In this document: positions 2,389 through 2,547 of the stretch, piece after piece
Position numbering within the stretch: position 1 is the first letter of the stretch
Layout: every line of letters begins with the position of its first letter
Assembly (NCBI RefSeq): GCF_003334785.1
Contig: NZ_QOWV01000056.1
Length of the DNA: 2,547 bases
Origin: Escherichia coli
GTDB lineage: Bacteria > Pseudomonadota > Gammaproteobacteria > Enterobacterales > Enterobacteriaceae
Strand: one strand, 5' to 3'
Program-made: the position numbers and the translations under genes
The notes under the pieces: generated by a model
Database searches by the model: none
What the model was told of the DNA's origin: nothing
The model's input: the letters and a program-made list of their open reading frames with translations, nothing else

Positions 2389-2547
2389 ATCAGTGCCAGC
2401 AATACTGTTACGCGTCTACAATGCCGATTCTGTTTGTGCTACGGTTGCACTTACAGTGTAAGCGACTCGTCAGAACCGTATTGATATTTACTGAGAGCTC
2501 AGATCAACTTTCCAGGGCAACAGATCGCGTACCCGGTTTGCCGGCCA

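Follow-up and report, generated by a model that had tools for sequence, protein, structure and literature searches.

Sequence identity places the tnpC-proximal end of ISCro1 within the signal-peptide codons of a pseudogene in a CP4-like island of Escherichia coli

The insertion sequence ISCro1 was named in Citrobacter rodentium ICC168, in which 24 copies are present (PMC3072379), and has also been described in E. coli ST131 (PMC8764528). It is common in both the chromosomes and the plasmids of E. coli. In order to have a reference, we compared six copies (L001 and L004-L008) from unrelated contexts, namely beside a gene of the inovirus Gp2 family, within the T6SS gene tssF, within traT, adjoining an Rhs locus, adjoining blaCTX-M-15 on a CTX-M-15 plasmid, and on an EspP plasmid. 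All six had ends starting with GTAAGCG, were flanked by an 8-bp direct repeat and measured 2,699 bp between these target-site duplications, whereas a size of 2,824 bp is given for ST131 (PMC8764528). The first copy, L001, occupies 4018-6716 of its record. All reference copies with the identical end have the tnpA-tnpB-tnpC organisation. A start with 5'-GTAAGCG is typical of the termini of the IS66 family.

Here we analysed the right edge of a 2,547-nucleotide stretch of E. coli DNA (contig NZ_QOWV01000056.1), referred to below as the window. Two opposed readings of this edge had been put forward: the 3' end of a minus-strand gene entering from beyond the window, or the start of a plus-strand gene opening at ATG 2421. 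Both frames are indeed present. The reverse complement of 2488-2547 reads WPANRVRDLLPWKVDLSSQ followed by the stop TAA at 2490..2488, and the frame from ATG 2421, MPILFVLRLHLQCKRLVRTVLIFTESSDQLSRATDRVPGLPA, stays open for 42 codons up to the window end. Under a chance model of 3 stops per 64 codons (our own arithmetic), 19 open codons are expected with p ~0.4 and 42 open codons with p ~0.13, so that neither frame is longer than chance would give. As a consequence, we decided between them by DNA identity with a known element and not by frame length. The features that we assigned are collected in Table 1.

Table 1. Features at the right edge of the window (positions are those of the window)
Feature	Position	Strand	Basis
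117-aa ORF, C-terminal remainder of the PF27224 gene	2035..2388	-	Read-through translation and homologues
Signal-peptide coding remnant TVSATVAQTESAL, ending in in-frame TAG 2418..2416	2416..2457	-	Translation of the uninterrupted island in TW10722 (L002)
Non-genic open frame that spans the junction of island and IS by chance, antisense to the two genes	2421..2547	+	Stops early both ways
CTTACAGT, target bases adjoining the IS end; expected 8-bp target-site duplication	2450..2457		8-bp repeats in six reference copies
Imperfect terminal inverted repeat, starting GTAAGCG	2458..2483		18/26 match between the two L001 element ends
Terminal 90 bp of ISCro1, tnpC-proximal; window ends inside the element	2458..2547	-	90/90 identity to six independent copies
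tnpC 3' end, last 19 codons and TAA	2488..2547	-	Residues 505-523 of the 523-aa ISCro1 (IS66-family) DDE transposase

A megablast search with 2389-2547 against 5,426 complete E. coli genomes returned 6,565 places in 2,921 records, where RefSeq gives the label 'IS66-like element ISCro1 family transposase', and the plasmids of PLSDB gave the same outcome. From 2458 the window reads GTAAGCGACTCG, with the GTAAGCG terminus at its start, exactly as in the six ISCro1 copies; between the tnpC stop and the end of the element lie 30 bp, within which the terminal inverted repeat is found, running inward from 2458. The original prediction had considered the sequence too short to decide between the two frames. 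However, its last 90 bases are the end of ISCro1, and among 60 records taken at even steps of the ranking most alignments begin at query position 70, that is, at window position 2458, many of them with 100% identity. Judged by this match, the right edge is the end of an already known and very common E. coli element, and as such it is ordinary.

The minus-strand frame is the tail of a gene, as had been proposed, since it is identical to the C-terminus of TnpC in ISCro1. In the six copies tnpC encodes a 523-aa protein with the end HIQDWPANRVRDLLPWKVDLSSQ, the same 19 residues as in the window, and its C-terminal stretch DWPANRVRDLLPWKVDLSSQ is the minus-strand reading. TnpC of L001 scored 478 bits with NF033517, the NCBIfam model of IS66 transposases (cutoff 180), and Pfam placed LZ_Tnp_IS66, zf-IS66, DDE_Tnp_IS66 and DDE_Tnp_IS66_C on it. 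The last of these domains covers TnpC residues 479-516 and takes in the first 12 of the 19 residues visible here; through these 19 residues the frame is assigned to an IS66-type DDE transposase, of which the window holds only the tail. In a virtual extension, made by joining the window to an ISCro1 copy with an identical end, the minus-strand frame extends over 526 codons without a stop. The suggestion that this frame would place another co-oriented gene directly upstream of the cargo module did not survive: the gene is tnpC of an IS that interrupts the island.

Only one end of the element lies in the window, and a complete ISCro1 in this strain is probable. A truncated remnant, consisting of a solo end or a partial tnpC in place of a complete 2.7-kb element, is unlikely, even if the window displays only 90 bp of it and some E. 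coli records do hold fragments that are labelled 'transposase domain-containing protein' or carry no feature (for example H111-H120). These 90 bp are identical to those of intact, evidently active copies, and where the match is 100%, the record in most cases has the entire 1,572-bp tnpC.

The plus-strand frame fares differently. It starts in island DNA and crosses the junction at 2457/2458, and its length changes with what lies to the right. The uninterrupted island allows it 24 codons; joined to ISCro1 it reaches 48 and meets its stop at 2565-2567, which is 20 bases to the right of the window. A real gene at this place would account for the 42-codon open frame reaching the window end and could make use of a weak sigma-70-like match at 2393-2422 (9 of 12 positions); a single such site was found as against a mean of 0.5 in shuffled sequences, which is no more than shuffles give. 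Both tnpC and the signal-peptide remnant lie on the strand opposite to this frame, and no annotation stands at its place in the related genomes, neither in TW10722 (L002) nor in the O157 island (L003). We regard a gene starting at ATG 2421 as next to impossible. The expectation that only one of the two frames would be real was thus borne out: the minus-strand frame is the tnpC tail by DNA identity, and the plus-strand frame is a chimera of island and IS that ends early. For annotation, we recommend a partial mobile element (ISCro1, partial tnpC) at the right edge, and neither a new island gene nor a plus-strand ORF.

To the left of the element, positions 1-2457 belong to a CP4-like genomic island that is 99.9% identical to that of E. 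coli TW10722 (NZ_CP035841.1); related islands are found in O157:H7, O111 and O145. The TW10722 island runs on past this point without an IS, which sets the junction at 2457/2458. Its match to the window formally reaches 2461, but only through a one-base gap. Without the IS, TW10722 reads CACTTACAGT TAAAACAACAGC, which leads into the beginning of the signal-peptide codons; across the site the uninterrupted island has CTTACAGT directly followed by TAAAAC.

No place covering the whole of 2389-2547, or at least 80% of it, was found in the 5,426 complete E. coli genomes, nor was any place of at least 80% found in PLSDB, and the exact junction was absent from IMG/VR, the GTDB species representatives and the JGI metagenome contigs. 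A chimera formed in assembly from island and IS reads would agree with a junction that appears in none of the collections searched. However, the IS sequence sets in precisely at the start of its terminus (GTAAGCG), which is also where all genuine copies begin, and a random mis-join would rarely hit this point; we consider such an artefact extremely improbable. We retain a genuine insertion.

The gene hit by the insertion was recognised from the uninterrupted island. On the minus strand TW10722 reads, in a single frame, MKLLNILLAVVLTVSATVAQTESAL, the stop, and TRNSIAGTDMFSIGNVSINC. A search with the read-through sequence led to three intact 152-aa proteins (P0001-P0003; 95%, 85% and 65% identical), which have Q or W at the position of the TAG. 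The family label PF27224 comes from the precomputed annotation of these homologues; our Pfam scan of an intact homologue, for which the library copy did not contain PF27224, returned no family. The insertion point separates codons L12 and T13; codons 1-12 were thereby removed from the gene, while codons T13 to L25 and the premature TAG remain next to the element. An uninterrupted full-length homology to the 152-aa proteins, including the N-terminal signal peptide, is not found in the window. Owing to the in-frame TAG and the loss of codons 1-12 to the IS, the PF27224 gene of the window is a pseudogene. The 117-aa ORF therefore represents the remains of a secreted-protein gene that suffered two inactivating events, a nonsense codon and an IS insertion, and not an intact cargo gene. 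At the TW10722 locus RefSeq lists only a 57-aa 'hypothetical protein', and the copy of the gene in the O157:H7 island has additional frameshifts.

Transcripts from tnpC might run on across the IS end, since a scan of 2300-2547 revealed no terminator-like site. It is nevertheless very unlikely that such read-through into the leaderless 117-aa remainder yields a cytoplasmic form of the protein, or that the insertion acts as a lineage marker. Nothing supports a function beyond ordinary gene disruption.

The flank of the insertion was also compared among copies. The top-ranked ISCro1 copies align 11-20 bases into the window flank, as in L001, which has gacggttgaattttcagc where the window has tacggttgcacttacagt. 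Two sources of this similarity, an IS end extending further than 2458 and a marked preference for certain targets, were considered and rejected: the uninterrupted island itself contains the flank, the evenly sampled matches mostly begin exactly at 2458, and ten distinct sampled flanks agree with that of the window at only 2-9 of 18 positions. The top matches resemble the window flank because some 6,500 places were ranked by their similarity to the query. All 10 distinct evenly sampled copies have C or G as the opening base of the 8-bp target duplication, and the window has C there. Beyond this, the flanks of L001, L004-L019 and the window (2433-2457) showed no target consensus, and the sample is far too small to speak of a preference.

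Several observations concern the rest of the window. At its left edge it starts inside a DUF932 gene (1-266, minus strand). When the whole window was used as query, 4,571 of the 5,426 E. coli genomes gave matches, and the number of matching places per genome had a median of 3. Repeats at both edges, the multicopy DUF932 gene and the multicopy IS, are probably those typical of a short-read contig. A DUF905-family gene accounts for the two short minus-strand ORFs at 366-491 and 494-589; according to RefSeq it is a frameshifted pseudogene in TW10722 (L002 6366-6589). In the minus-strand ORF at 687-1100 (137 aa) the N-terminus is clearly a signal peptide (MKNIITILMIAVISFFTANVSA); the protein also contains several cysteines and is called 'hypothetical protein' in all related islands. 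NCBIfam gave no family for the 137-aa, 117-aa and DUF932-fragment ORFs, and an Rfam scan of the window (E up to 1) was empty.

The events at this edge are best explained as follows. ISCro1, an element of the IS66 family, has transposed into the CP4-like island and entered a gene for a small secreted protein (PF27224 family), which in this lineage already has a nonsense codon. The frame from ATG 2421, beginning in island DNA, runs antisense into the IS by accident. Beyond the window we expect the remainder of tnpC, then tnpB, tnpA and the far inverted repeat ending in GAGCCGGTTAC, after which a second copy of CTTACAGT should lie, followed by TAAAACAACAGCTAAAAGAATG as in TW10722. The window probably ends where it does because short-read assemblies break in a multicopy IS. 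That 2458-2547 is the tnpC-proximal end of an ISCro1 transposed into the signal peptide of the PF27224 gene of a CP4-like island, and that the plus-strand ORF is accidental, we hold to be almost certain.

Compared with known systems, the insertion site of this IS, a PF27224 pseudogene in a CP4-like island, has no counterpart in the other records searched. The island agrees with that of TW10722 in its gene order (DUF932, DUF905 pseudogene, 137-aa ORF, DUF4339 protein, PF27224 pseudogene) and in the in-frame TAG; in TW10722 the next genes upstream encode a patatin-like phospholipase, an RdcB-family protein and a dynamin-family protein. With ISCro1 the window shares the C-terminus of tnpC, the stop codon, the 30-bp spacer and the GTAAGCG-terminal repeat, and across the visible 90 bp the two are the same at every base.
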